Shown here: in pieces, positions 50-11,752 of the stretch
Layout of the letters: each line of letters starts with the position of its first letter
Numbering within the stretch: the stretch's first letter is position 1
Origin: a virus
Reading direction: 5' to 3' (one strand)
DNA length: 11,802 nt
UHGV virus genome: UHGV-0166849
Program-made: the position numbers and the translations under genes
Notes under the pieces: model-generated
The model's database searches: none
What the model saw: only the letters and a program-made list of their open reading frames with translations
What the model was told of the DNA's origin: nothing

Positions 50-2995
50 TTAGTGCTTCCCTTCTATTAAGTCTAACCTAGCTTTTATCTTATCCATTTC
101 TCTGCGCTGCCATGCTGCCTCGATATAGAATAAGAGATCAGGTCTGACCCCCCATCTAGATCCTGCTGGCGTTATTTCAACGCGCTCAATGATGTCTTCT
201 ATTACCATCACTGGATTATCATCCTCATCAACAATGATGCTCCCGTCATTATCAGTCAGCGGCATTTCCCTTTGGCCAGTAATGACGTCATCATATACTG
301 CGGGATAATCGTCATAGCAAAGAAAGGCATAGCGGCATGTTGTGCTTTCTTCTTCCATGAGTCCGTGAGAAATAAGAACATCACGAAGTTGCTGCGCGAT
401 TACACCATGATGTATCCTCGCCCCTTCTTCCCCCTTTATAGCGACAGCGTTCAGCCATTTATAAGCGATATACCTGACGTCACCCCAGGCATCCAGCAAT
501 GCTTCGTCAGGAGAGACCGGCTCTGTCTTTAATGTTCCGTCACTGGTAACCACAGGATTGGAGCCAAGATAAACTATCGAGAACCTGTTTCCCGGACCAC
601 CAAGAGCATTTACATTATCAAGATAAGGTTTAACATCTCCGTTCTCAAAAAGATGTTCGAGTGCGTTATATACCGCGCGACGTGGAGTACTGCTTCTGGA
701 ACCATGCAACGTTATCATTGCACCATCTGCTGAAGACGTTGTTTCACCGCCGCTAACGATTAATCTCTGAGCGGTAACATCATCAGACGGTACTTTCTTC
801 GCAATAATGGCGTAATTACCCTCAAGTTTGACTTCCGCGCGAACTTGTCCTGATGTACCTGCATGGACAGTCAGTGACTGGACGGCAACATCATCTGTGA
901 AATCAACGGGTACAGGAACCGTCCTCACGCCTGACGTCGACATAAAAGTAGGAAGCGTTCTGTTAGGAGTGGCTCCGTAGACAAAATCCCTTGAAACAAA
1001 TTCTTCCTGTTTAATTTTCACCCTGAAACAATACAAATCAGCCGGGTGACCATCGTGAACATAAGGATATTTTCTGTTGTTATCCCCTATGCTCCATGGG
1101 TTTAGAAAATCTTCCCCACCGAAAATGTAGTACAGCCAGTTGTCTTTGATACAAACTGAACCAACACCAACCGCAGAGTTAACTATTCCGCCCTGATAAA
1201 TCTGATCAGTAACATTAACCCACTCTACATTATCCAGACTCCACTCATTGACGTTAACTCTGGTCATAAATGTTCTTGGATAATTTCCTGCATAACGGTT
1301 ATCAGGTTCTCCTCCTTCCCACTCACCAAATGCGCGCTCACTGCCAAAAATAACCAGCTCATCGCCAACTTTGGCAAAAGGAAGGTTTGAGTGATGAACA
1401 TTATTTGGGAAGCGAAGAGAATTCCATGATGTACCTAAATCAGAGCTTCTGTGCAATGAACTACCGGGTTGAGTACTTAATGTCCCCCTGGTCGTCAGAT
1501 ACAGAATGCCATCATAATATTTTACACATGGCTCAGATGCATTCGCCTCATATTCTGCAGGTATGCGTCTGCGAACAAAGCTACCAGGAGAACCGAAAGC
1601 ATCAGAGAAATAGAGTATCCCAAGCTCGCGTGGACCAATATCACCATTATGGTAGCCAACAGCAAAACTGTTATCGCTAATCGTCGCAAAACTGTGAATC
1701 TCAGTAACAGGAGTGCTTCCGTCAACAAAAGAAGGAATAGTTCCAAGACTGGTTTTTCTCCATGGTGACGAGTGAAATGATGTGCCAAAACTCCAGTATC
1801 TACCCTCGTTATTCTGATCCACATCCTGGGTATTTTGCGTCGTAACTGTAAAGGTATTTTTATCAATAACAGTAGTCACCGTCATATTCCCGGTAACATC
1901 TGTAACACCAGAGTTTGAGAAGTTGACAAAATCACCAGCAAATAATCCGTGATCAGTAATGCGAATATAAGCGACTTGCTGATTTGCTGCTTTCGTTATA
2001 CCACCATAAACGCGAAGGCTGCGACTCATTGGGCGATCCCACAACTCTGCAACCTGCAGTTTATTTCCTCTCACGGTCCGCGTCTCAATTACAGCAAAAA
2101 GGCGATTTCTGACAACCCCCATACTCATGCAGTGATAGTTAACTGTGGGATAGTTTTCATGTAAATCTGTAAGCCATTCCGGCGTTGTCCAGGTCTTCCC
2201 GTCATCTCCTGAGCGAACCCATGCAACATGGAGGTTATTTACACCATGGCGGTCTCCAGCCATAAAAGGCGCATAGATGACATTGTCATATACAAACGTT
2301 TTATCCTGCGTCCAGGCGTTGTACCACGGTGTATCTGTAATTTTAAATAACTCTCCCTGGATAAAATCTTCAGAAGCATAAAAAAGAGGCTGACCCGGTA
2401 TTCTCTCAAATAAAAAACGAGCATTTTTAAATCGACTGACATCTGGAAGAGTTGATACTTTAAAAGTAAGCCCTCGCCCATCTATCTTTTCACCACCTGT
2501 TGCAACAGAAAGTAATTCTGATAGAGCTGATGTATCATCATGAACACCATCACCAATAGCCCCCCAACCTCTTACATCATAACTGTCTCTCCATCTTGCT
2601 ATCTGAAGTTTTGGGTATTTATTCGCTCCATCTGGGTCTTCTAATTGCCGCCGTAACTGATCAGGATCATACTTCAGCACATTAGGAAAATAAAACTGCT
2701 GTGAACCATATGCATCGTACACAGCCATAGAGTGACCTTGCACAGTTACGAACTTGGCAATCTGTCCGTTATATACCGGATATCCAGCAGCGTTAATGAT
2801 GATTGGTTGCGAAACAGGAACGTGAGAGCCGTCTTCGTTCTCCACATAAGCCTGAATCTGGTTTTCAGGATTTACCGGGTCAGTGTCAATTTTACCGATA
2901 TAAATTTTGCCATTGGCTACAGCTTTAAAAGAACGCGCCATAGTGAAGAGTTGCGAAGGCATGCTGACCACAACATTTGCGGTGATATCTGTCAT
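50..2995 (-). CDS. Tailspike protein (981 aa): P22 gp9-type head-binding N-domain + sialidase-like domain with Asp-boxes + C-terminal intramolecular chaperone-like domain; probable endo-N-acetylneuraminidase (endosialidase)
   Basis: Full-length ORF in track. N-terminus [11 protein letters not shown]...[22 protein letters not shown]...ENEDGSHV...NVLKYDPDQ closely matches my memory of the P22 tailspike head-binding domain. Two Asp-box motifs are read directly: SGDDGKTW (aa 262-269, nt ~2189-2212) and SSDLGTSW (aa 517-524, nt ~1424-1447). The C-terminal ~160 aa (motifs [25 protein letters not shown]) resemble endosialidase/tail-fibre C-terminal chaperone domains. SD GGAG lies 8 nt upstream of the ATG at 2995. 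Confidence 0.85.
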
Positions 2996-3051
2996 TTAAT
3001 TTGCTCCAGATACAAGGAATCGCCGCAGCGTGGCTACGGTGAATTTTGGGC

Positions 3052-3079
3052 ATAAAAAAACCCAGCCGAAGCTGGGTCG
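3052..3079 (-). terminator. Rho-independent terminator between ant and the tailspike gene (t_ant-like)
   Basis: On the + strand: A7 run (3054-3060), then a 7-bp stem ACCCAGC/GCTGGGT with loop CGAA (3060-3077). Read on the minus strand this is a hairpin followed by a U7 run, 19 nt downstream of the ant stop. Confidence 0.6.
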
Positions 3080-3095: not shown

Positions 3096-4019
3096 TCAGT
3101 AGTTATGTACTGAAGGAGGTAATTCTTTGTTCTTAAGTCTTATCCATGCTGAAAGGTTTGTTGGTCCGTCTGGCTCATTAATATCAACATCTCGTGTATG
3201 GTTGATTAAAACATCTCTCGCCATTCCGATAACATACGAGAACTCATAACCGCAGTCATGACATCTGCCGGAATAGTTCGATTGAATTTGTTTCAGCGCC
3301 GGATACAGTTCGCGGAATAATGCCTGTGAGCGGTTGGCATAATCCCATAGCCATACAAGGCTGTTTGCTTCTTTTGCAGAAAGCTCGTTGGTTTTCTTCT
3401 CTTGTTTGCCAATGAACTCACCTTCAAGTGGAACTCGAGCTGCAAGTGATAGTGCTTCGGTAAACTGCTCCTCACTGATTTCTTTGTACGAACATCCAAA
3501 ATGGGATTTCAGTGACGACCACATGGTGATCATCGCCTTAGCCCGTTTTTCTTTTGGCAGAGACTGACCGCGACTCATGACGAGTTGTTTAATGGCTTCC
3601 TGCTGTTCAGTGGTGATTTTACCCGGCAACGCCTTTTTAGCTTTGCGTGGGTTAACTACATAGCCTTTAGTCCAGTACTCGTAGAGCACATCGTCACACT
3701 CTTCCTGATACTGGATTACCTTGTCGCGGATTTCAGGGCGGACTTTGTTTGGCTGAATGCTTGAAAGCCAAGCCGCAAACTTACGAAAGGCAAGGCATAT
3801 CATTAACTGTTTACCGCCAGCAGAAGGTATTTCGATTTCCGAAATACCTTTGACAAATCTCTGTTTTAATTTAACAAATTGAGCAGCCCAAACCATACCC
3901 ATGCCTTCTACAACGGGTTTCATAGGAACGTAAGGTTCATTGTTAATGCTGACCAAAAAGAGATTTGTTCCGTGGAATGGAACGTTGATTGTATGTTCTG
4001 CAATTGCTACACTCGTCAT
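3096..4019 (-). CDS. ant: Antirepressor Ant (307 aa), AntA/Bro-N-like N-terminal domain
   Basis: ORF in track. Sits downstream of arc and upstream of the tailspike, as in P22 immI. N-terminal region (..VPFHGTNLFLV...PMKPVVEGMGMVWAAQ..KL) looks like phage antirepressor N-domains. SD AGGA ~8 nt upstream of the ATG at 4019. Confidence 0.75.
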   Translation of the reverse strand: MTSVAIAEHTINVPFHGTNLFLVSINNEPYVPMKPVVEGMGMVWAAQFVKLKQRFVKGISEIEIPSAGGKQLMICLAFRKFAAWLSSIQPNKVRPEIRDKVIQYQEECDDVLYEYWTKGYVVNPRKAKKALPGKITTEQQEAIKQLVMSRGQSLPKEKRAKAMITMWSSLKSHFGCSYKEISEEQFTEALSLAARVPLEGEFIGKQEKKTNELSAKEANSLVWLWDYANRSQALFRELYPALKQIQSNYSGRCHDCGYEFSYVIGMARDVLINHTRDVDINEPDGPTNLSAWIRLKNKELPPSVHNY

Positions 4020-4090
4020 GTCGTTAATTCCTATGCGTGGTTTTACGATACCGAAGCCCTGACTGTTCCCGCAGTTGGGGCTTCACTGTT
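4020..4090 (+). ncRNA. Candidate sar-like antisense RNA (~70 nt) complementary to the ant RBS and start region
   Basis: Plus-strand promoter-like hexamers inside the 5' end of ant: TTGATT (3985-3990), 17-bp spacer, TACACT (4008-4013), placing a start near 4020. Downstream is an imperfect hairpin GAAGCCC...GGGCTTC (about 4051-4081) followed by TTTTT (4085-4089). This matches the known P22 arrangement of sar RNA opposite the ant RBS. Prediction from sequence only. Confidence 0.3.
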
Positions 4091-4304
4091 TTTGTAAGTC
4101 ACTGTAGCTATAAAGCCACTGACCACTCATTTTTGATTTGATTGACTCTACTGAATCACGGCAAGGAATGATTCCACCTGACATCATTCTGATCTCCGTA
4201 AATTCACCACTCCTTATCGATTCAATGCCATCAATGTTAACTAAAGATTTACCTCTACCAAGTGCATTCTCATAGCCAATCTCATCAACCTCAATAAACT
4301 TCAT
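4083..4304 (-). CDS. Hypothetical protein (73 aa) located between arc and ant
   Basis: ORF in track. Its ATG overlaps the arc stop codon (ATGA at 4301-4304, minus strand), which suggests translational coupling. SD-like GAGGGGA upstream. No recognisable motif. As I recall P22 immI, there is no gene between arc and ant. Confidence 0.45.
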   Translation of the reverse strand: MKFIEVDEIGYENALGRGKSLVNIDGIESIRSGEFTEIRMMSGGIIPCRDSVESIKSKMSGQWLYSYSDLQKQ

Positions 4305-4459
4305 ACCGTTATCCCCTCTCTCTTCAGGCTGTCCAACACTCGCTTGTAAATCTCAGAGTTAACAGATCGCCCGTTCTCTTCAGCTACCTTGCGCACCAAA
4401 TCCAATACTTCTTTAGGCCACCGCAAATTGAACTGCGGCATTTTTCTTGCACCTTGCAT
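4301..4459 (-). CDS. arc: Arc transcriptional repressor (52 aa, ribbon-helix-helix)
   Basis: Not in the ORF track (below its size cutoff). Manual translation of the minus strand gives MQGARKMPQFNLRWPKEVLDLVRKVAEENGRSVNSEIYKRVLDSLKREGITV, near-identical in its first 40 residues to P22 Arc as I recall it (MKGMSKMPQFNLRWPREVLDLVRKVAEENGRSVNSEIYQRV...). SD AGGGGA upstream of the ATG at 4459. Confidence 0.85.
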   Translation of the reverse strand: MQGARKMPQFNLRWPKEVLDLVRKVAEENGRSVNSEIYKRVLDSLKREGITV

Positions 4460-4481
4460 GTCATCCCCTTTGTGGTATTAC

Positions 4482-4508
4482 CGTACTACTATTGAAAGCG
4501 TACTACTA
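4482..4508. repeat. Two copies of a 10-bp direct repeat CGTACTACTA (4482-4491 and 4499-4508) flanking TTGAAAG; candidate operator for Arc and/or Mnt
   Basis: Read directly from the sequence. The repeats overlap the predicted P_ant -10 and transcription start region and flank the P_mnt -35. The TAGTAG core on the opposite strand is reminiscent of the P22 arc operator half-sites. Confidence 0.4.
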
Positions 4509-4520
4509 CCGTCCTAGCAT
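4492..4520 (+). promoter_or_regulatory. Candidate P_mnt promoter, overlapping back-to-back with P_ant
   Basis: On the plus strand: -35 TTGAAA (4492-4497), 17-bp spacer, -10 TAGCAT (4515-4520). Followed by SD AAGGAG (4533-4538) and the GTG start of mnt at 4545. Confidence 0.4.
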
Positions 4521-4525
4521 GTCAA
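4497..4525 (-). promoter_or_regulatory. Candidate P_ant promoter (drives arc, orf73, ant)
   Basis: On the minus strand: perfect -35 TTGACA (4525-4520), 17-bp spacer, weak -10 TACGCT (4502-4497). Lies in the divergent arc/mnt intergenic region, as in P22. Confidence 0.45.
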
Positions 4526-4544
4526 CAAATAAAAGGAGAATGAC

Positions 4545-4787
4545 GTGGCTAGAAATGATCCGCAATTCAACGTAAGAATGCCAGATGAGATAAAACAGCA
4601 ACTTACGCATATTGCTGCAACAAATCGTCGCTCTATCAATGCTGAAATTATTGCCGCTATCCAATTGTGGATAAAGATACATAAAGAGCAGGTAATACCT
4701 TCAAGTAGTCAGCAACTGACCAAGTCAGAGAAAGAGGCTCTTGATGTGACTATTGATGTTCTACAACGTGTAAGGGATGGGAAATGA
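4545..4787 (+). CDS. mnt: Mnt repressor (80 aa, ribbon-helix-helix, Arc/Mnt family)
   Basis: ORF in track with GTG start. N-terminus MARNDPQFNVRMP...RRSINAEI matches P22 Mnt as I recall it (MARDDPHFNFRMP...GRSMNSEL). Divergent from arc, with a strong SD AAGGAG 6 nt upstream. Confidence 0.85.
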   Translation: MARNDPQFNVRMPDEIKQQLTHIAATNRRSINAEIIAAIQLWIKIHKEQVIPSSSQQLTKSEKEALDVTIDVLQRVRDGK

Positions 4788-5056
4788 AACCAACGAACAA
4801 AGAAATTTTCGAGCAAATAAAAGTACTTCCTTTCACTATTGAGCTTGCAAAGAGATATGAAGCTTATTATCCGTTTACCGAAGAGTCGATACGGATAGAG
4901 ACATATGATGAGTTTGGTCAGTGCTCTATCTGGCTTGGCTTTGAAGACCAATTTGCTATACGTGATGCTTTTGGAAATTGGAGAATGGCTACAGCTGAAG
5001 AATGTATTGATCTCAGAGGTGGCAACCTTCCAGGTTCAATGACATTAGTTAATTAA
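4784..5056 (+). CDS. Hypothetical acidic protein (90 aa), translationally coupled to mnt
   Basis: ORF in track. Its ATG overlaps the mnt stop (ATGA at 4784-4787). Net acidic (15 D+E versus 9 K+R). No recognisable motif. Confidence 0.55.
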   Translation: MKPTNKEIFEQIKVLPFTIELAKRYEAYYPFTEESIRIETYDEFGQCSIWLGFEDQFAIRDAFGNWRMATAEECIDLRGGNLPGSMTLVN

Positions 5057-5080
5057 CGGCGTACATGGCAGGTATGTAAA

Positions 5081-5266
5081 ATGAATAATAAACCAATGTC
5101 TAACGAAGAGTTGCAGCGCGAGTTAAAGAAACTTCATAAACTGGTATCACTTATCTACTCCAAGTTGCCACCAGATGCTCGACAAGCTGTTTTTGATGAA
5201 CTAACAAGAAGCGGAGATAGGGATGATCTGGATACTGCTTCTCGTATCAATAGCTACCGTTTTTAA
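5081..5266 (+). CDS. Hypothetical protein (61 aa)
   Basis: ORF in track. Weak SD (AGGT) 7 nt upstream. Its last 20 nt overlap a convergent minus-strand small ORF. Coding status uncertain. Confidence 0.35.
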   Translation: MNNKPMSNEELQRELKKLHKLVSLIYSKLPPDARQAVFDELTRSGDRDDLDTASRINSYRF

Positions 5267-5426
5267 TAGCCTCCAGAGTCGAATCGTAACGACTGCGCAT
5301 TGATTTTGCTGATTTCTCAAGCTCTTCTGCTTGATGCTTCAGTGATTCAAGATGAAGCTCTCCAAGATGGCACTTCATCACTTTGATGGTGCGTTCAAGG
5401 TTTTCCACACGTTCTTCTATGGTCAT
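5247..5426 (-). CDS. Hypothetical protein (59 aa), helical and charged; not in the ORF track
   Basis: Manual translation gives MTIEERVENLERTIKVMKCHLGELHLESLKHQAEELEKSAKSMRSRYDSTLEAIKNGSY. Strong SD AAGGA 6 nt upstream of the ATG at 5426. No obvious promoter between it and the upstream terminator, so expression is uncertain. Confidence 0.35.
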   Translation of the reverse strand: MTIEERVENLERTIKVMKCHLGELHLESLKHQAEELEKSAKSMRSRYDSTLEAIKNGSY

Positions 5427-5458
5427 GGTATTTCCTTAATCTTTAAAGTAGAGAAGAT

Positions 5459-5490
5459 AAAAAAACCCACCTGACGGTGGGTTAATTTTT
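5459..5490. terminator. Bidirectional rho-independent terminator
   Basis: A-run (5459-5465), perfect 8-bp stem AACCCACC/GGTGGGTT with loop TGAC (5464-5483), then AATTTTT (5484-5490). The A-run on one side and T-run on the other allow termination in both directions. Confidence 0.65.
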
Positions 5491-5508
5491 GCATTTACCT
5501 GGGCCATA

Positions 5509-5537
5509 TTGACTACTCATAAAATGAGATCAATATT
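5509..5537 (+). promoter_or_regulatory. Candidate sigma70 promoter for the small gene at 5574, with an inverted repeat in the spacer
   Basis: -35 TTGACT (5509-5514), 17-bp spacer, -10 AATATT (5532-5537). The spacer contains the inverted repeat CTCAT-AAAA-TGAG (5517-5529), a possible operator. Confidence 0.35.
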
Positions 5538-5573
5538 TAATCGCCCAATAACGGGTGTATGTTGAGGTATATC

Positions 5574-5753
5574 ATGGCGAAAAAACCAGGTGAAAACACA
5601 GGAAAAAACGGCGGAATATACCAAGAAGTTGGCCCACGCGGCGGTAAGAAAGACAATTTTGCAACCGTCAAGGACAACGAAAGGCTTCCACCAACAACAA
5701 AGCCAGGTCATGGCTGGGTATTGGATAAGCGAACTCCAGACAGCAAAAAGTAA
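5574..5753 (+). CDS. Hypothetical small basic protein (59 aa; alternative start at 5559 gives 64 aa)
   Basis: ORF in track. SD GAGG (5564-5567) 6 nt upstream of the ATG at 5574. Gly/Lys/Pro-rich sequence MAKKPGENTGKNGGIYQEVGPRGGKK...LPPTTKPGHGWVLD. I have a vague sense this resembles a conserved small-protein family but cannot name it. Confidence 0.55.
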   Translation: MAKKPGENTGKNGGIYQEVGPRGGKKDNFATVKDNERLPPTTKPGHGWVLDKRTPDSKK

Positions 5754-5766
5754 TACTCAAGCCGGG

Positions 5767-6132
5767 TCACTCCGGCTTTTTGATATGTCGCTCGCAGAAC
5801 TCAACAAGCCTGCTCATTAAGTAGCAGTAAGTCTCATTGGCTCTTCCTGGTTCAACATCAACACCGACCCTTGAGCAGATATCGAATGCCATGTGAGCGC
5901 ACTCATGGGCAATAGTAGATAGTTTGCCATTGAACACGCCTATCACATGCAAAACACCATTCTCGCTGCTCATTGTATGAGACGCTCCGTTGGCGTCCGA
6001 GTCATGCACGTCAACGCCAAGTTTTTGATGCAGGCGTTGCCATTCTGGAAAGTCTCTACAAAACACAATTGTACCGCTCTCAAAGAGCGGAACGAGCATC
6101 TTTGGTACGTTTCCAATGTTAACTTTTTTCAT
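5767..6132 (-). CDS. Hypothetical HExxH-motif protein (121 aa); candidate mini zinc-metallopeptidase
   Basis: ORF in track starts at a TTG at 6171. I prefer the first ATG at 6132, which has SD AGGA ~5 nt upstream. Contains HECAH (aa 76-80) with Glu residues 14 and 20 aa downstream, consistent with a zincin HExxH...E arrangement. The overlapping plus-strand translation looks non-protein-like. Confidence 0.55.
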   Translation of the reverse strand: MKKVNIGNVPKMLVPLFESGTIVFCRDFPEWQRLHQKLGVDVHDSDANGASHTMSSENGVLHVIGVFNGKLSTIAHECAHMAFDICSRVGVDVEPGRANETYCYLMSRLVEFCERHIKKPE

Positions 6133-6162
6133 GGTATCCTGCTCAAAACTAAGGAGCTTGGT

Positions 6163-6552
6163 GTGAAGCAATTTCTTGCTGCTATGTTCTTATTCATATC
6201 TTTTGGGGCTACAGCAGAGTGCTGGGTCGTTGGAGATATGCGCGGAATAAGCTATTCAGAACGAAATAATTTCCATCCGGAAGAAGATGGTTTTAGTGGA
6301 ACATTCATCATTAAGACAAGCGGTGAAGATGCCAGCATCACATATTCTGGGACAGATGCGGGCGGCATGGCTTACAAAGCATTGTCTAAAAACTCCATCA
6401 TAGGAATCGGCGCGAATGGCGAAACTCAACGCGTTATCGACTCATGGGTAATACATCCTACTGGAACAGTTTTAATGTCAAAAACCATTTCTGGTTATGG
6501 GAATATGGATTCAACCAAAGCTTTTGTTGGAAAAGTAAAAAGAAAATGTTAA
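6163..6552 (+). CDS. Hypothetical secreted/periplasmic protein (129-aa precursor) with Sec signal peptide
   Basis: Start re-called to the GTG at 6163, with SD AAGGAG (6151-6156) 6 nt upstream. N-terminus MKQFLAAMFLFISFGATA|ECW has an n-h-c signal-peptide layout with an A-x-A cleavage site. The predicted mature protein has one Cys at residue 2 and one as the C-terminal residue. No lipobox. Opposite orientation to the late operon, at the position P22 uses for sieA. Confidence 0.6.
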   Translation: MKQFLAAMFLFISFGATAECWVVGDMRGISYSERNNFHPEEDGFSGTFIIKTSGEDASITYSGTDAGGMAYKALSKNSIIGIGANGETQRVIDSWVIHPTGTVLMSKTISGYGNMDSTKAFVGKVKRKC

Positions 6553-6576: not shown

Positions 6577-8418
6577 TTACTGCTGTGTTGCCTCAGTAGC
6601 AAGCAGCGGCCTGATGGCATTTGCAGCGTTACTCAACGCTCTTTCATAGGCTGGTGTTCCTGCTTTGGTGTTTGCCAGACGTAAGAGCGCATTCCTTGCT
6701 GCTTTGGACTCATACAAGCGCATCATTGCACCGAAACCAGCCTCAAGCCCCATTGATACGCCAAGAGTCGCAGTTGCGCCAATCGTCCTTATCCTGTTGG
6801 CTTGCGATTGCCCCGTCTGAGTTACTACATTTGCGGTGTCTGACCTTGCTGTTTGCTGCAGAACTTCATGAAGAGCATCAAGTTCTTTCATGTGCTTTCC
6901 AGAAAAAATAGTGTTGTAAATTTCACCGCCTGACTGAGATTTCAGCTTATTAACTTCAGTGATGAACTTGGCTGGAGAGTCACCGGCCTTTTCCGCTATT
7001 TTGCTGACGTAAGCTGCACGCATAGCATCTTTCCCTTTATCATCCAGTGCGCTCCAGATTCGTTTCACGTCAGATGGTTTTCTGCTTAATACAACGGTAT
7101 TTATAAGTTCAGGACTGGCTTCACTGCTTGCCTTGTTGAGTTTGTTAGCAATGTTTTTATTAAGCACCTTATTATAAACGTTTGCATAATCGGAATTTGC
7201 TTTAAGGTATTTTGCTGCGTCTGATGCACCGAGGTTTTTAGCAACTGCGTTACGAAGGTCTTTTGACATTGCATTCTCTACCATATTGGTAGCTGCTTTT
7301 GCCTGGTTGGGGAAGACCATAGCATCTCCCTGAACATTAGATCTAAATGCTGTTCTGTGCTGACGCAAGAGATCAAACGTAACATCCAAATCAGTTGCAG
7401 GGTTTGCTAATTCTTCACGTAGGTTACGCAAGGATGTAAGCAGGCTTTGATTGGCAGACGTCCCAAGTCGTTCCTGTCTTGCGATCGCTGTATTCAGAGC
7501 ATTCATGGTATTTGTGGTATCAACTGCGGCATTACCCATTTTATTGGTGACGTCATTGATAACAGCGCCAGCGGCATCCTTCCTCCCCCTTAACGTGGTG
7601 GTCAGAGATTTCACCACATCATCAGGGTTGTACTCACCAAAACGGTCAAAATAATTACTTACCAGCTTACTACGCGTTGCATATTGCTCCGCTCGCTTTG
7701 AGCCTGTCCCGAGCAAAGCCCCCTCGGCATCCTGAGTAAGGCCGCGAGTGAAAGCATTTTTCGGCGGGATAACATCAGATGTCATTGGTGTCACGCCCAT
7801 CGATTCTGATGTGGCAATTTTCTTCGCCACTTCTGGCGCAATATCACCTTTTATAGCCGTTATTCCACGCCCTATTCCCTTTGCTGCGGCGGAAAGAACA
7901 CCCTGAGCGGCAAGGTTAACTCCGGCATTTTTAGCTGCATTTTGTGCGAAATCGCCTTTCTGATTTGCGGCCTCTGCCAGTGATCCAATAGCCATGCTTC
8001 CTGCCGTTCCAACTCCTGGAACTAAATACCCACCAATTGTTTCACCGGCTTGTGCGTAGGGGTCTGTCGGTCTGTCTACTGGACGATAAACATCATCCAA
8101 AACCTTGGGTCCACCAAGCCCCTGACTGATTGCATTAATCAGACTTGCGCCACCCTGCAATACGTCAAATGGTATGTTTACCAGACCACGACCAGCCTGT
8201 TCTGCAATTTGCTCTGCACTTTGACCACCAGTGAGCCAATCGCCAGCTTGTTGCATCAATGATGGTTCTTCCCGTGTTGGTGCATTATTGGCCTGATTAA
8301 CTGTTTGTTGCTGAACAGCCTGACCAGCAAAATACTCATCAATGGCGGTGCCAATATCTTCGGTGCTCGTACCATCAGGAAAGGTAAATGTCTTACCGTT
8401 TGCAGTTACTTTCATCAT
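6577..8418 (-). CDS. Ejection (pilot) protein, P22 gp16-like (about 612 aa)
   Basis: ORF in track. Size and position (last gene of the gp7-gp20-gp16 series, immediately before the immI/accessory region) match P22 gene 16. Its start overlaps the gp20-like stop (ATGA). Confidence 0.8.
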
Positions 8419-9890
8419 TCCACCGTAAATTGAATGCCTGATTTTGAGGTATATGATCCGGATTGACTCTGCTGCTGTTGGGTATTTGTCGGTTGTTGGC
8501 TATTGCTCTGTTGTTGACTATTTGCAGCACTTGAAACCACCAAAGCATCATAAACGCGACCAGACTGACCACGTAATGAGTTATATTGGCCCTGCATTTT
8601 TCGCATTTTTGTTTCAGTAGCAGCCTTGGAATCACCGGGCTGAGGGAGGTACATTTTGGAATACTCCTGCATCTCTGGCAGAGTAATTGCTGCACCTGTT
8701 TCTGGGCGCAAAATTGCATACAAGGCGTCTCTCGCATTTACCATATATTGCTGCTCCGCTGGTGATAGGCTTAAATTTGCAATAGTTCCATCACCAAGAG
8801 AGCGATTTATTAATGCAACTCGCTTAGGGTCAATGCTTTTACTAAGCTGATTCATTGAGTCCATTGAATCTTTTAATCGCAAAGCAAATCCCGCCGCCTT
8901 CTTGGAACCCTCATTAGCCTTATCTATGATGCTTTGCGCTTGTGGCAAGCTAATTGGTTTAATGCCATCACCAGATATAGGTTGGTTTAGTTTTCCGGCT
9001 TCCTCGCTGCCATCGGTGTAATACTTAGTTACCGAGCCATCAGGATTGGTTTCAACCTTAAGTAATTTCTTAGCATTGGGATTAATTCCCGCCGCTGCCG
9101 CAAATGCCGCTGCACCATCTGGATCTACCTTTAACATTTGCGCGTACTGATTGTAATTCTGCATTGCGGCTGTTGGTGCATATGCTGACGTTAACGCATT
9201 TGCTCGGCTAATATCCTGCCCTCTCGCCTGAAGTGCTTCACCAGCCTGATTGCTGCGGATTGTCTCTGCCAGTCTGCCTCGGTCAATTTCACGACCAGCC
9301 ATCTTGTCCTGAACAGCAAACGCCTTTTCTGGTCCAAGCGCACCGAGAGACATAGTAGTCAGCATGTGTGATAGCTGCTCTGGATTCTGGATACCTGTCT
9401 GAATCATCCAGTCAGCATTCGCCCCCACGCGATTTAACCTGTCCTTGTTGTCAGTAATGAATTTACTGTAGGCTTCCGGTCCCTGAGAAAGAGCGACGTT
9501 AGCTCTCATGGCTAAATCGCCCATATCGTTGCGTTGCTGATCATTAAGACCTGAAAACGCCTGTTGTGCCTGTGCAACAAACGCTGGATTTTCCTGGGCA
9601 AACTTAAATAGTCCCGATGGATCACCAGAAGCCCATGCATCAGCATGAACCTTATTGAACGCACTAATCGCTTTCTGTTGCTGTTCCTGATTGTAAATAT
9701 CAGCAACTCCAGCCAGACCACGTAACGCGGTCAGACCAACGTTATTTGTACCTGAGCGAGCCAGTTCATTGTTTTCGCGGATCAGACCAAGCGTTGCGTT
9801 AATGTCGCTTGCCTTTGGCGCATTCTCATTTTGCGTACCGATGCCAGCCAGAAAACCACCAGAATTAATACCCTGTTGCCAATTAGCCAT
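8415..9890 (-). CDS. Ejection protein, P22 gp20-like (491 aa)
   Basis: ORF in track. Position between the gp7-like and gp16-like genes. Gln/Ala/Gly-rich. Size close to P22 gp20 (about 471 aa as I recall). Confidence 0.8.
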
Positions 9891-9900
9891 TGATTACCCC

Positions 9901-10593
9901 TTAAAACAGCGAACCAAGCAGACCAAGACCAGCACCGATACCAGCACCCCACGGAGTTGATAGCTCGAGAGCACTGGCTATACCACCACCCAAAAGCGCA
10001 CCGGATGCAGCACCACTAACACCCTGCCGCAATGCTGACGGTCGGTTGGCGTTTGCCGCCGCCAGCGCCGCGCTTTGCTGTGAAATCTGACTCATGTTGT
10101 TGGCATATGTTTGCCCGGCGTTTGCCTGCCCCTGAAGAGCGCCAAGACCGATATTTGCCAGGTTGTTGTAATTGTTCATTTGTCCAGACAGCCATTGCTG
10201 ACCAAGCGTTGGTGCGATTGTTGCTAACTGATTACTGGTTGCGGTGGAACCCAATCCACCTGTTGCTTCCGCTGCCGCCAGACTCTGATAGCGAGCCTGA
10301 CCAGCAAGATCTTTGTACTGCTGAGAGTTGTAATACTGGTTAAGTGCCTGACCTTGCCCTTCCAGAGACGATAAGTTCTCAAGGCTGCCGACATACTTCC
10401 CAGCCAGAGGAGTAAACGGCTTCAGGTTGTTCATGATGGTGTTGAACTGCTGATTTTGCAGGTCTGCGGCATACTTCTGAGCTTCTGCGGCATACTTTGC
10501 ACTTTTATCAGAACTGCCACCTTTCCCGCCTTTTTCAGGGCAATAAGGTTCCTCGCCGCGCAGTTTTCTGCCCAGCTTAAATGCATATAACAT
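9901..10593 (-). CDS. Ejection protein, P22 gp7-like (230 aa)
   Basis: ORF in track. Size matches P22 gp7 (about 229 aa). N-terminus MLYAF.LGRKLRGEEP and a Gly/Ala-rich hydrophobic C-terminus. Separated by 2 nt from the upstream gp14-like stop. Confidence 0.8.
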   Translation of the reverse strand: MLYAFKLGRKLRGEEPYCPEKGGKGGSSDKSAKYAAEAQKYAADLQNQQFNTIMNNLKPFTPLAGKYVGSLENLSSLEGQGQALNQYYNSQQYKDLAGQARYQSLAAAEATGGLGSTATSNQLATIAPTLGQQWLSGQMNNYNNLANIGLGALQGQANAGQTYANNMSQISQQSAALAAANANRPSALRQGVSGAASGALLGGGIASALELSTPWGAGIGAGLGLLGSLF

Positions 10594-10595
10594 GG

Positions 10596-11051
10596 CTATC
10601 TCCCGTGATTCAGGAAGTCGATTAGTTCTTCGCGTGTGGCGCTGTAAAACGTCACGTCATCCACGCCTTTGAAGTATTTTTTGATGGTTCCTACACGATT
10701 AAGGCCAATCATTGCGCAGTACATCTGACCGTGGCGGAATTTGCGTGCAGCGAACGATGTGACGCACTGAACGGTGGTGTTAGTCAGAATGTATCGCCAG
10801 AACGCCAGCCCGATTTCCTTGCTGAATCCGCGAACCTCTGGCAGGTACATGGCGTGGCAATCGAATGTAAGCGGCTGAATCTCCTGGTAGTAAACAATGC
10901 CGCCAAACTGACCGTGCACGTTAACCTCAAAGTAACGGCATTCAGGCTTGTAGTCGTATCCATCACCGTTGTTGCTTCCAGCAATAATGTCAGGGTGATT
11001 TCCTACTGCTTCTATCAGGTCGATGTTTCGCGTTGGTTTGAATGTAATCAT
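10596..11051 (-). CDS. P22 gp14-like protein (151 aa), assigned by position
   Basis: ORF in track. Lies between the tail needle and gp7-like genes, as gene 14 does in P22. Its ATG overlaps the tail needle stop (ATGA at 11049-11053). Assignment is by synteny only. Confidence 0.6.
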   Translation of the reverse strand: MITFKPTRNIDLIEAVGNHPDIIAGSNNGDGYDYKPECRYFEVNVHGQFGGIVYYQEIQPLTFDCHAMYLPEVRGFSKEIGLAFWRYILTNTTVQCVTSFAARKFRHGQMYCAMIGLNRVGTIKKYFKGVDDVTFYSATREELIDFLNHGR

Positions 11052-11752
11052 CAGTCAATCAGCCCATGTAATCTAAGTGCTGTTTCAAGCGCCAGAATAC
11101 GCTGCCGCGCCTGCTGCAAACCTGTAGCGAGAGCTGCGACTTCGGATTGTGTGTACGTAGTGCCGACAGTGTATGACTGGTTAGCGTTGAATGAGCCAAG
11201 AAGTGGCGTACCTGTGGCTGCAGTCCATCCGGTATTTCTTGCTCCAACAACCTGAATTCCATCAACTGAATATGATGTTTTTACATCCAGCGGTGACGCA
11301 AGAGACTGCAATTCGGTTACGGTTTTCGATACGTAATCACTCTTAATGCCAGAGACATCGTTTTCTACGTCATCCAGTCTTTGGTCAACAGTGACCAGAT
11401 GCGCCTGAATATCGATAACCTCATCCAGCAAGTAATCAACATCGCTACGCAGTACGACTATCTTCCCTTCGGCAGTTGTTAACCTGACCTCAAGTAGATT
11501 TATCGCTTTTGTGTTTGCGGTGATTCTTGCGTCGTGATCAGCCAGTTCGACATCCTGTTCATCGTTTTTCACCTGTGCATCGTAAGCGCCCTGACCAGCC
11601 TGATTTGCCTTCCCGGCAATTGCGCCGACATCAGCCCCCTGATTAATGACATACAACAGGTAAGACTGGCTGAAGATATTGCGTGGAAGGATTGATGTAT
11701 CGAGCCGCGTCGCCTGCACAATAACAGGAGTGTTGAGATTCGAATCCGCCAT
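11051..11752 (-). CDS. Tail needle protein, P22 gp26-like (233 aa)
   Basis: ORF in track. N-terminus [73 protein letters not shown] closely matches my memory of P22 gp26. Identical length, heptad-rich middle, correct position. Confidence 0.85.

Follow-up and report, generated by a model that had tools for sequence, protein, structure and literature searches.

The DNA analysed here (the window) is the whole 11,802-nt stretch of the UHGV virus genome UHGV-0166849. It is part of a P22-like (Lederbergvirus) E. coli prophage and most resembles phage CUS-3 in the region between the antirepressor gene ant and the tailspike gene. In a megablast search of the whole window against complete E. coli genomes, none covered more than 77% of it; the source prophage is a mosaic and is absent as such from that genome collection. 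The order on the minus strand is needle and ejection genes, moron region, Pant, arc, a 73-aa ORF, ant, the terminator t_ant and the tailspike gene. The features of the window are:

50..2995, minus strand: tailspike gene, 981 aa, with P22-type head-binding (Head_binding), endosialidase and C-terminal S74 chaperone domains (Pfam)
2996..3053, minus strand: untranslated tailspike leader, with the SD sequence GGAG at 3007..3004, a U-less hairpin at 3039..3023 and no sigma-70-like promoter
3023-3039, minus strand: second leader hairpin, CCGTAGC-CAC-GCUGCGG, 7 bp, without a U-run, between t_ant and the SD sequence
3054..3060, minus strand: U-tract of seven T (read from the sequence; consensus scan)
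3059..3078, minus strand: terminator stem-loop GACCCAGC-UUCG-GCUGGGUU (read from the sequence; consensus scan; fold)
3096..4019, minus strand: ant, antirepressor, 307 aa (Pfam P22_AR_N, 8.6e-40, and P22_AR_C, 1.2e-28; annotated as ant in relatives)
4021..4087, plus strand: sar antisense RNA, opposite the ribosome-binding region of ant (Rfam RF00262, 76.6 bits, E 5.8e-15)
4083..4304, minus strand: 73-aa ORF between arc and ant (phrog_11805, unknown function, 4.2e-53)
4301..4459, minus strand: arc, 52 aa (Pfam Arc, 1.8e-26)
4492-4520, plus strand: Pmnt-like promoter, divergent from Pant (consensus scan)
4497..4525, minus strand: Pant-like promoter, TTGACA-17-TACGCT (alignment to P22 Pant)
4545..4787, plus strand: mnt-like repressor gene, 80 aa (Pfam Arc/RHH, 3.3e-13)
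5464-5483, bidirectional: second strong terminator, AACCCACC-GUCA-GGUGGGUU followed by U5 (consensus and strict scans)
6577..11752, minus strand: upstream late genes for the needle, a gp14-like head-completion protein and three ejection/DNA-transfer proteins (PHROG)

The predicted mnt, divergent Pant and Pmnt, arc, sar, ant, terminator and tailspike make up the full immI architecture of P22. The 73-aa ORF of the window has no annotated counterpart between the arc and ant genes of P22; a Pfam search of this ORF gave no hit, and the terminator of the sar RNA sits at its 3' end. In the Pant/Pmnt region (4460-4544) the -35 element and its flanks align with P22, and the Arc and Mnt operators are replaced, the window having repeated TAGTAGTACG and GGTAATACC where P22 has GGTCCACGGTGGACC. 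This difference in the operators suggests an immI specificity different from that of P22, with the wiring the same. The moron region from the ejection genes to mnt (4784-6552) holds small ORFs of unknown function on both strands (phrog_2651, phrog_1365 and phrog_16466), each with its own terminator-like hairpin. The 5464-5483 terminator lies within this region, is close to t_ant in shape and would also be crossed by late transcription.

The CUS-3 gene homologous to the tailspike gene is annotated siaK1, an endosialidase tailspike, and its endosialidase part shows 99% protein identity to that of the window. The protein thus resembles CUS-3 and differs from P22, whose tailspike is an endorhamnosidase. 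It would be a CUS-3-type endosialidase against the K1 polysialic-acid capsule, with S74 as its intramolecular chaperone domain, which implies that the present or former host was probably a K1-encapsulated E. coli.

The ant-tailspike intergenic region is a non-coding stretch of 100 nt on the minus strand, and t_ant lies inside it. The initial annotation had described a clean hairpin with a U-run at 3052-3079, immediately following ant on the minus strand, and each part of this description was borne out. The stem has 8 bp, seven Watson-Crick pairs and an outer G.U, with five of the eight pairs being G-C, and carries a cUUCGg tetraloop. The seven T of the U-tract overlap the stem, the final two stem bases being the first two T, and A3053, T3052 and G3051 come after the T-run on the minus strand. 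Since the ant stop codon TGA (3098..3096) is only 17 nt before the stem, the element does follow ant immediately, and the original boundaries enclose it with a one-base margin. The consensus scan also called the hairpin at 3078..3059 a minus-strand terminator. The isolated hairpin has a fold energy of -13.5 kcal/mol, and a 111-nt intergenic stretch gave a folding z-score of -2.89 against shuffles, with the t_ant hairpin in both the MFE and the centroid structure. The three features that define an intrinsic terminator were found together: a G+C-rich stem of about 5-14 bp with a short loop, a U-tract, and a non-coding site just 3' of a gene on the same strand. At the level of sequence, the 3054-3078 element was confirmed as a Rho-independent terminator, with release of the polymerase predicted at the U-tract. 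Read on the plus strand, the hairpin has CGTTGCGT after it and no T-run; a bidirectional t_ant was ruled out for this reason, and the terminator should work one way, on the minus strand only.

A loose consensus scan of the window gave 22 terminator-like sites where 10 were expected, and that list is therefore weak evidence by itself. A strict scan of both strands over the whole window was also made, requiring at least 8 bp, at least five G-C pairs and at least six T among the next seven bases. The minus-strand sites 3078..3059 and 5483..5464 were the only two to pass, against a mean of 0.005 per window in 200 dinucleotide-preserving shuffles. The exact 25-mer of t_ant occurred once in the window and never in the 200 shuffles, even with three mismatches allowed. 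A chance origin of the hairpin was thereby excluded.

The window was then aligned with CUS-3, epsilon34 and P22 over the ant-tailspike intergenic region. A block of 61 consecutive nucleotides, CAACGCAACGACCCAGCTTCGGCTGGGTTTTTTTATGCCCAAAATTCACCGTAGCCACGCT, which includes the hairpin and the U-run, is identical in window and P22, and a 54-nt core of this block, again with hairpin and U-run, does not vary among the four phages. In P22 (BK000583, 16012-16035, between ant and gene 9) the identical hairpin is annotated "regulatory, terminator, gene ant", in epsilon34 it is annotated "Rho-independent terminator", and in HK620 the hairpin is a "terminator associated with remnant of P22 ant gene; tANT". 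For CUS-3 the sole label on the region is "bsq1; boundary sequence", with no mention of a terminator; a literature search for "boundary sequence" with CUS-3 gave no paper explaining bsq1. On the 61-nt identity and the annotations in P22, epsilon34 and HK620, the element is best regarded as the orthologue of t_ant, already known and annotated in these phages and nothing new. The position is that of P22 t_ant as well, about 17-18 nt past the ant stop and 5' of the tailspike gene, with arc, sar, Pant and mnt upstream. Apart from the operators and the type of tailspike, P22 differs in that an insert of about 107 bp, bounded by a direct repeat of AAAATTCACCGTAGCCAYGCT, follows t_ant before gene 9, whereas in the window the tailspike ATG is about 60 nt past the hairpin. 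This insert (extracted P22 locus 2720-2830, compared with window 3015-3045) holds a hairpin of its own, GACCTACAAAAAAATTGTAGGTC. It is absent from the window, CUS-3 and epsilon34, and related hairpin-bearing inserts occur in other IMG/VR relatives.

Over the 100 nt of the intergenic region, CUS-3, epsilon34 and HK620 are 96-98% identical to the window. HK620 differs in that its ant is reduced to a remnant and the 3' arm of the stem has a 1-nt deletion (extracted locus 621-641), which leaves a shorter stem. In Stx-converting phages (Pankowvirus) a homologous ant 3' end is followed by the same GACCCAGCTTCGGCTGGG hairpin and T-run; there, however, a tail assembly gene of another virion type begins about 15 nt past the T-run, and the tailspike leader is absent. 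One such phage, Stx2a_WGPS8 (extracted locus 600-660), shows homologous ant and t_ant hairpin followed by the tail assembly gene. Given the same ant and hairpin before a tail assembly gene in Stx phages, the ant-terminator unit evidently moves between phage types as a cassette, or mobile "moron".

Matches to the 100-nt intergenic region were found in 115 phage records and in 520 of the 5426 complete E. coli genomes; they extended over at least 80% of its length in 24 of these records and 325 of these genomes. This spread, the presence of the identical sequence in Salmonella and E. coli phages and the two sites observed in the strict scan against the 0.005 expected per shuffled window leave a practically negligible probability that the hairpin is a functionless chance inverted repeat. 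The two ends of the intergenic region had different partners. Positions 1-69 (ant end, terminator and start of the leader) go with ant, and positions about 54-100 (leader) go with the tailspike gene, even in L and ST64T, which have no ant; the 3' 44 nt of the leader are likewise found ahead of the tailspike gene where a phage has no ant. What the ant-linked and tailspike-linked parts have in common is the stretch that P22 carries twice, around the insert.

Relatives were also collected from IMG/VR by a pattern scan in which the 16 stem positions were free, while the loop, the U-run and some of the upstream flank were prescribed. The stem was identical in 56 of 57 relatives, and the remaining one had a G-to-T change at the outermost pair. 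In most matches the ant end preceded the hairpin at the spacing found in the window and the tailspike start came 60 nt after it; in some the gap between hairpin and tailspike was 138 to 663 nt (overall range 60 to 663), and some had no recognisable ant C-terminus directly upstream of the hairpin. Among 28 distinct 110-nt sequences no compensatory change was found in the t_ant stem: seven of its eight pairs are constant, and the only departure at the eighth is a single mismatch. Because the stem is practically invariant, covariation is uninformative on t_ant, and it neither supports nor contradicts the structure. Variable columns were fewer in the stem (1/16) than in the leader (21/58; one-sided Fisher p = 0.016), a comparison that is only suggestive of stronger conservation of the stem than of the adjacent leader because the scan pattern had itself prescribed bases next to the stem, in the loop, the U-run and part of the flank. 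The second leader hairpin (3039..3023) had wobble-compatible single changes only and no double changes, and was not above shuffled controls. With compensatory pairs absent, it is not claimed as a structured element.

The initial annotation had concluded from the terminator that expression of the tailspike depends on antitermination, and had named a strong independent promoter between 2996 and 3050 as a finding that would speak against this. The consensus scan gave no minus-strand promoter between 3095 and 2996. In a lenient check from the ant stop to the tailspike ATG, which covers 2996-3050, a TANNNT hexamer was absent throughout and the best combined -35/-10 match was 7/12. At the sequence level, the tailspike gene is without a sigma-70-like promoter of its own, which leaves room for an unconventional one. 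The gene is also co-oriented with the virion genes and downstream of them (PHROG), which together with the lack of an own promoter is the layout of a late operon. In the complete CUS-3 genome the ant and tailspike genes share their strand with Q and with the lysis, packaging, head and ejection genes.

We consider it very probable that t_ant closes the arc-ant unit of the immI "moron" in a CUS-3-like prophage, and that the tailspike is made through Q/gp23-antiterminated late transcription. With a Pant-like promoter, arc, sar and mnt upstream, there should be Pant transcripts to be stopped. From P22 and lambdoid biology we infer both their termination and the read-through by a Q-modified polymerase. 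Polymerase would start at Pant (4525..4497, minus strand) and transcribe arc, the 73-aa ORF and ant; the UUCG-capped hairpin would then form, and the polymerase would pause on the U-tract and leave the template 60 to 65 nt short of the tailspike start codon, so that unmodified transcripts would give no tailspike expression. The tailspike gene would be the promoterless last gene of the late operon. Late polymerase would start at a single late promoter far upstream, outside the window, would be made terminator-resistant by the Q/gp23 antiterminator, whose gene is likewise outside the window, and would read through both t_ant and the 5483..5464 terminator. Pant fires early, before Arc shuts it down, and in the established lysogen Mnt represses Pant, so that t_ant would matter mainly early in infection or after induction.

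Berget, Poteete and Sauer reportedly gave the primary demonstration, in 1983, that expression of the P22 tail protein is controlled by transcription termination. P22 has one late promoter, with immI inside the late operon (PMC8022706). The arrangement in the window does not differ in principle from the logic of lambdoid late operons, with one late promoter, a Q antiterminator, intra-operon terminators and "morons" (as defined by Juhala et al. 2000, cited in PMC2629481): a promoter-gene-terminator cassette would lie within a long Q-antiterminated operon, its terminator insulating the late genes downstream. Identity to the P22 ant terminator and the literature thus favour the earlier claim that Pant transcripts stop at this site, and homology, layout and literature favour the claim that the tailspike is expressed mainly by antiterminated late transcription, as in P22. 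That the terminator implies antitermination does not hold for the terminator alone; it does hold for the terminator combined with the operon layout.

A leaky terminator would act as an attenuator, with much of the tailspike mRNA coming from Pant read-through and late antitermination only partly needed. The leader has a good SD sequence and no further terminator, and the ant moron has been described as tuning the tailspike level (PMC2629481). However, an 8-bp G+C-rich stem with a UUCG loop and seven U typifies efficient terminators, and in P22, where the operators are annotated, Arc and Mnt shut Pant soon after infection. UAB_Phi20, a P22-like phage with the same terminator block, responded to a host defence gene with more immI transcripts (Pant repressor, ant and sar) and fewer tailspike, coat, holin, lysozyme and late-antiterminator transcripts (PMC12111858; RT-qPCR). 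The tailspike mRNA there tracked the late genes and not ant, so transcription of ant and tailspike is uncoupled and the tailspike follows the late genes, in line with the preferred mechanism. Leakiness on this scale is improbable. Still less likely is a main role of the hairpin in 3' stabilisation or processing, be it of the ant mRNA or the long late transcript, rather than in polymerase release. Stable 3' hairpins shield mRNAs from 3' exonucleases, and HK620 retains the hairpin though its ant is degraded. But the adjoining U-tract marks termination and not a stabiliser alone, and the deletion in the HK620 copy weakens the stem. Like a chance repeat, these two models are each unlikely. The termination efficiency of t_ant could be below 100%. 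According to the epsilon34 paper, late polymerase crossing the ant moron may itself be subject to modulation, in which Mnt and Arc possibly take part (PMC2629481), so that full read-through is a simplification.

The block could also be kept mainly as a mosaic "boundary sequence" for swaps of morons and tailspikes by recombination, with termination secondary or historical. Exactly this intergenic region carries the label "bsq1; boundary sequence" from the CUS-3 depositors, and three types of junction were seen around the hairpin: ant, hairpin and a tail-assembly gene in Stx phages; non-ant or remnant-ant sequence, hairpin and tailspike (HK620, L071, L109 and L131); and ant, hairpin and an insert, with the tailspike start 138 to 663 nt away instead of 60 nt. 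Invariance without compensatory change fits recent horizontal spread as well as structural selection. Such a role is compatible with terminator function and does not exclude it, however, and the element is a textbook intrinsic terminator, annotated as one in P22, epsilon34 and HK620. In addition, the junctions flank the hairpin and do not fall inside it, which suggests that it travels with its neighbours as a functional unit. A mainly recombinational role is rather unlikely, although it deserves more weight than leakiness or stabilisation.

Related to this, we tentatively raise the rather unlikely idea that the hairpin and the about 44-nt leader are invariant because they form a portable recombination joint for the exchange of moron and tailspike among P22-like, CUS-3-like and Stx phages. 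On this view, terminator function would tolerate compensatory changes and so would not by itself explain the invariance. If true, the terminator would double as a homology anchor for host-range switching, here involving an endosialidase against the K1 capsule. The idea is only mildly new, as the CUS-3 "boundary sequence" label already hints at it.

On the preferred reading, in which t_ant ends the Pant transcripts and antiterminated late transcription passes it, the prophage keeps the classic P22 wiring: its K1-capsule endosialidase tailspike would be insulated from the early/immunity promoter Pant and expressed in the late programme only. The importance of this is small beyond correct annotation. 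For annotation, the point is that the P22 t_ant is present in the "bsq1 boundary sequence" of CUS-3 and in the corresponding unannotated regions of hundreds of E. coli prophages.
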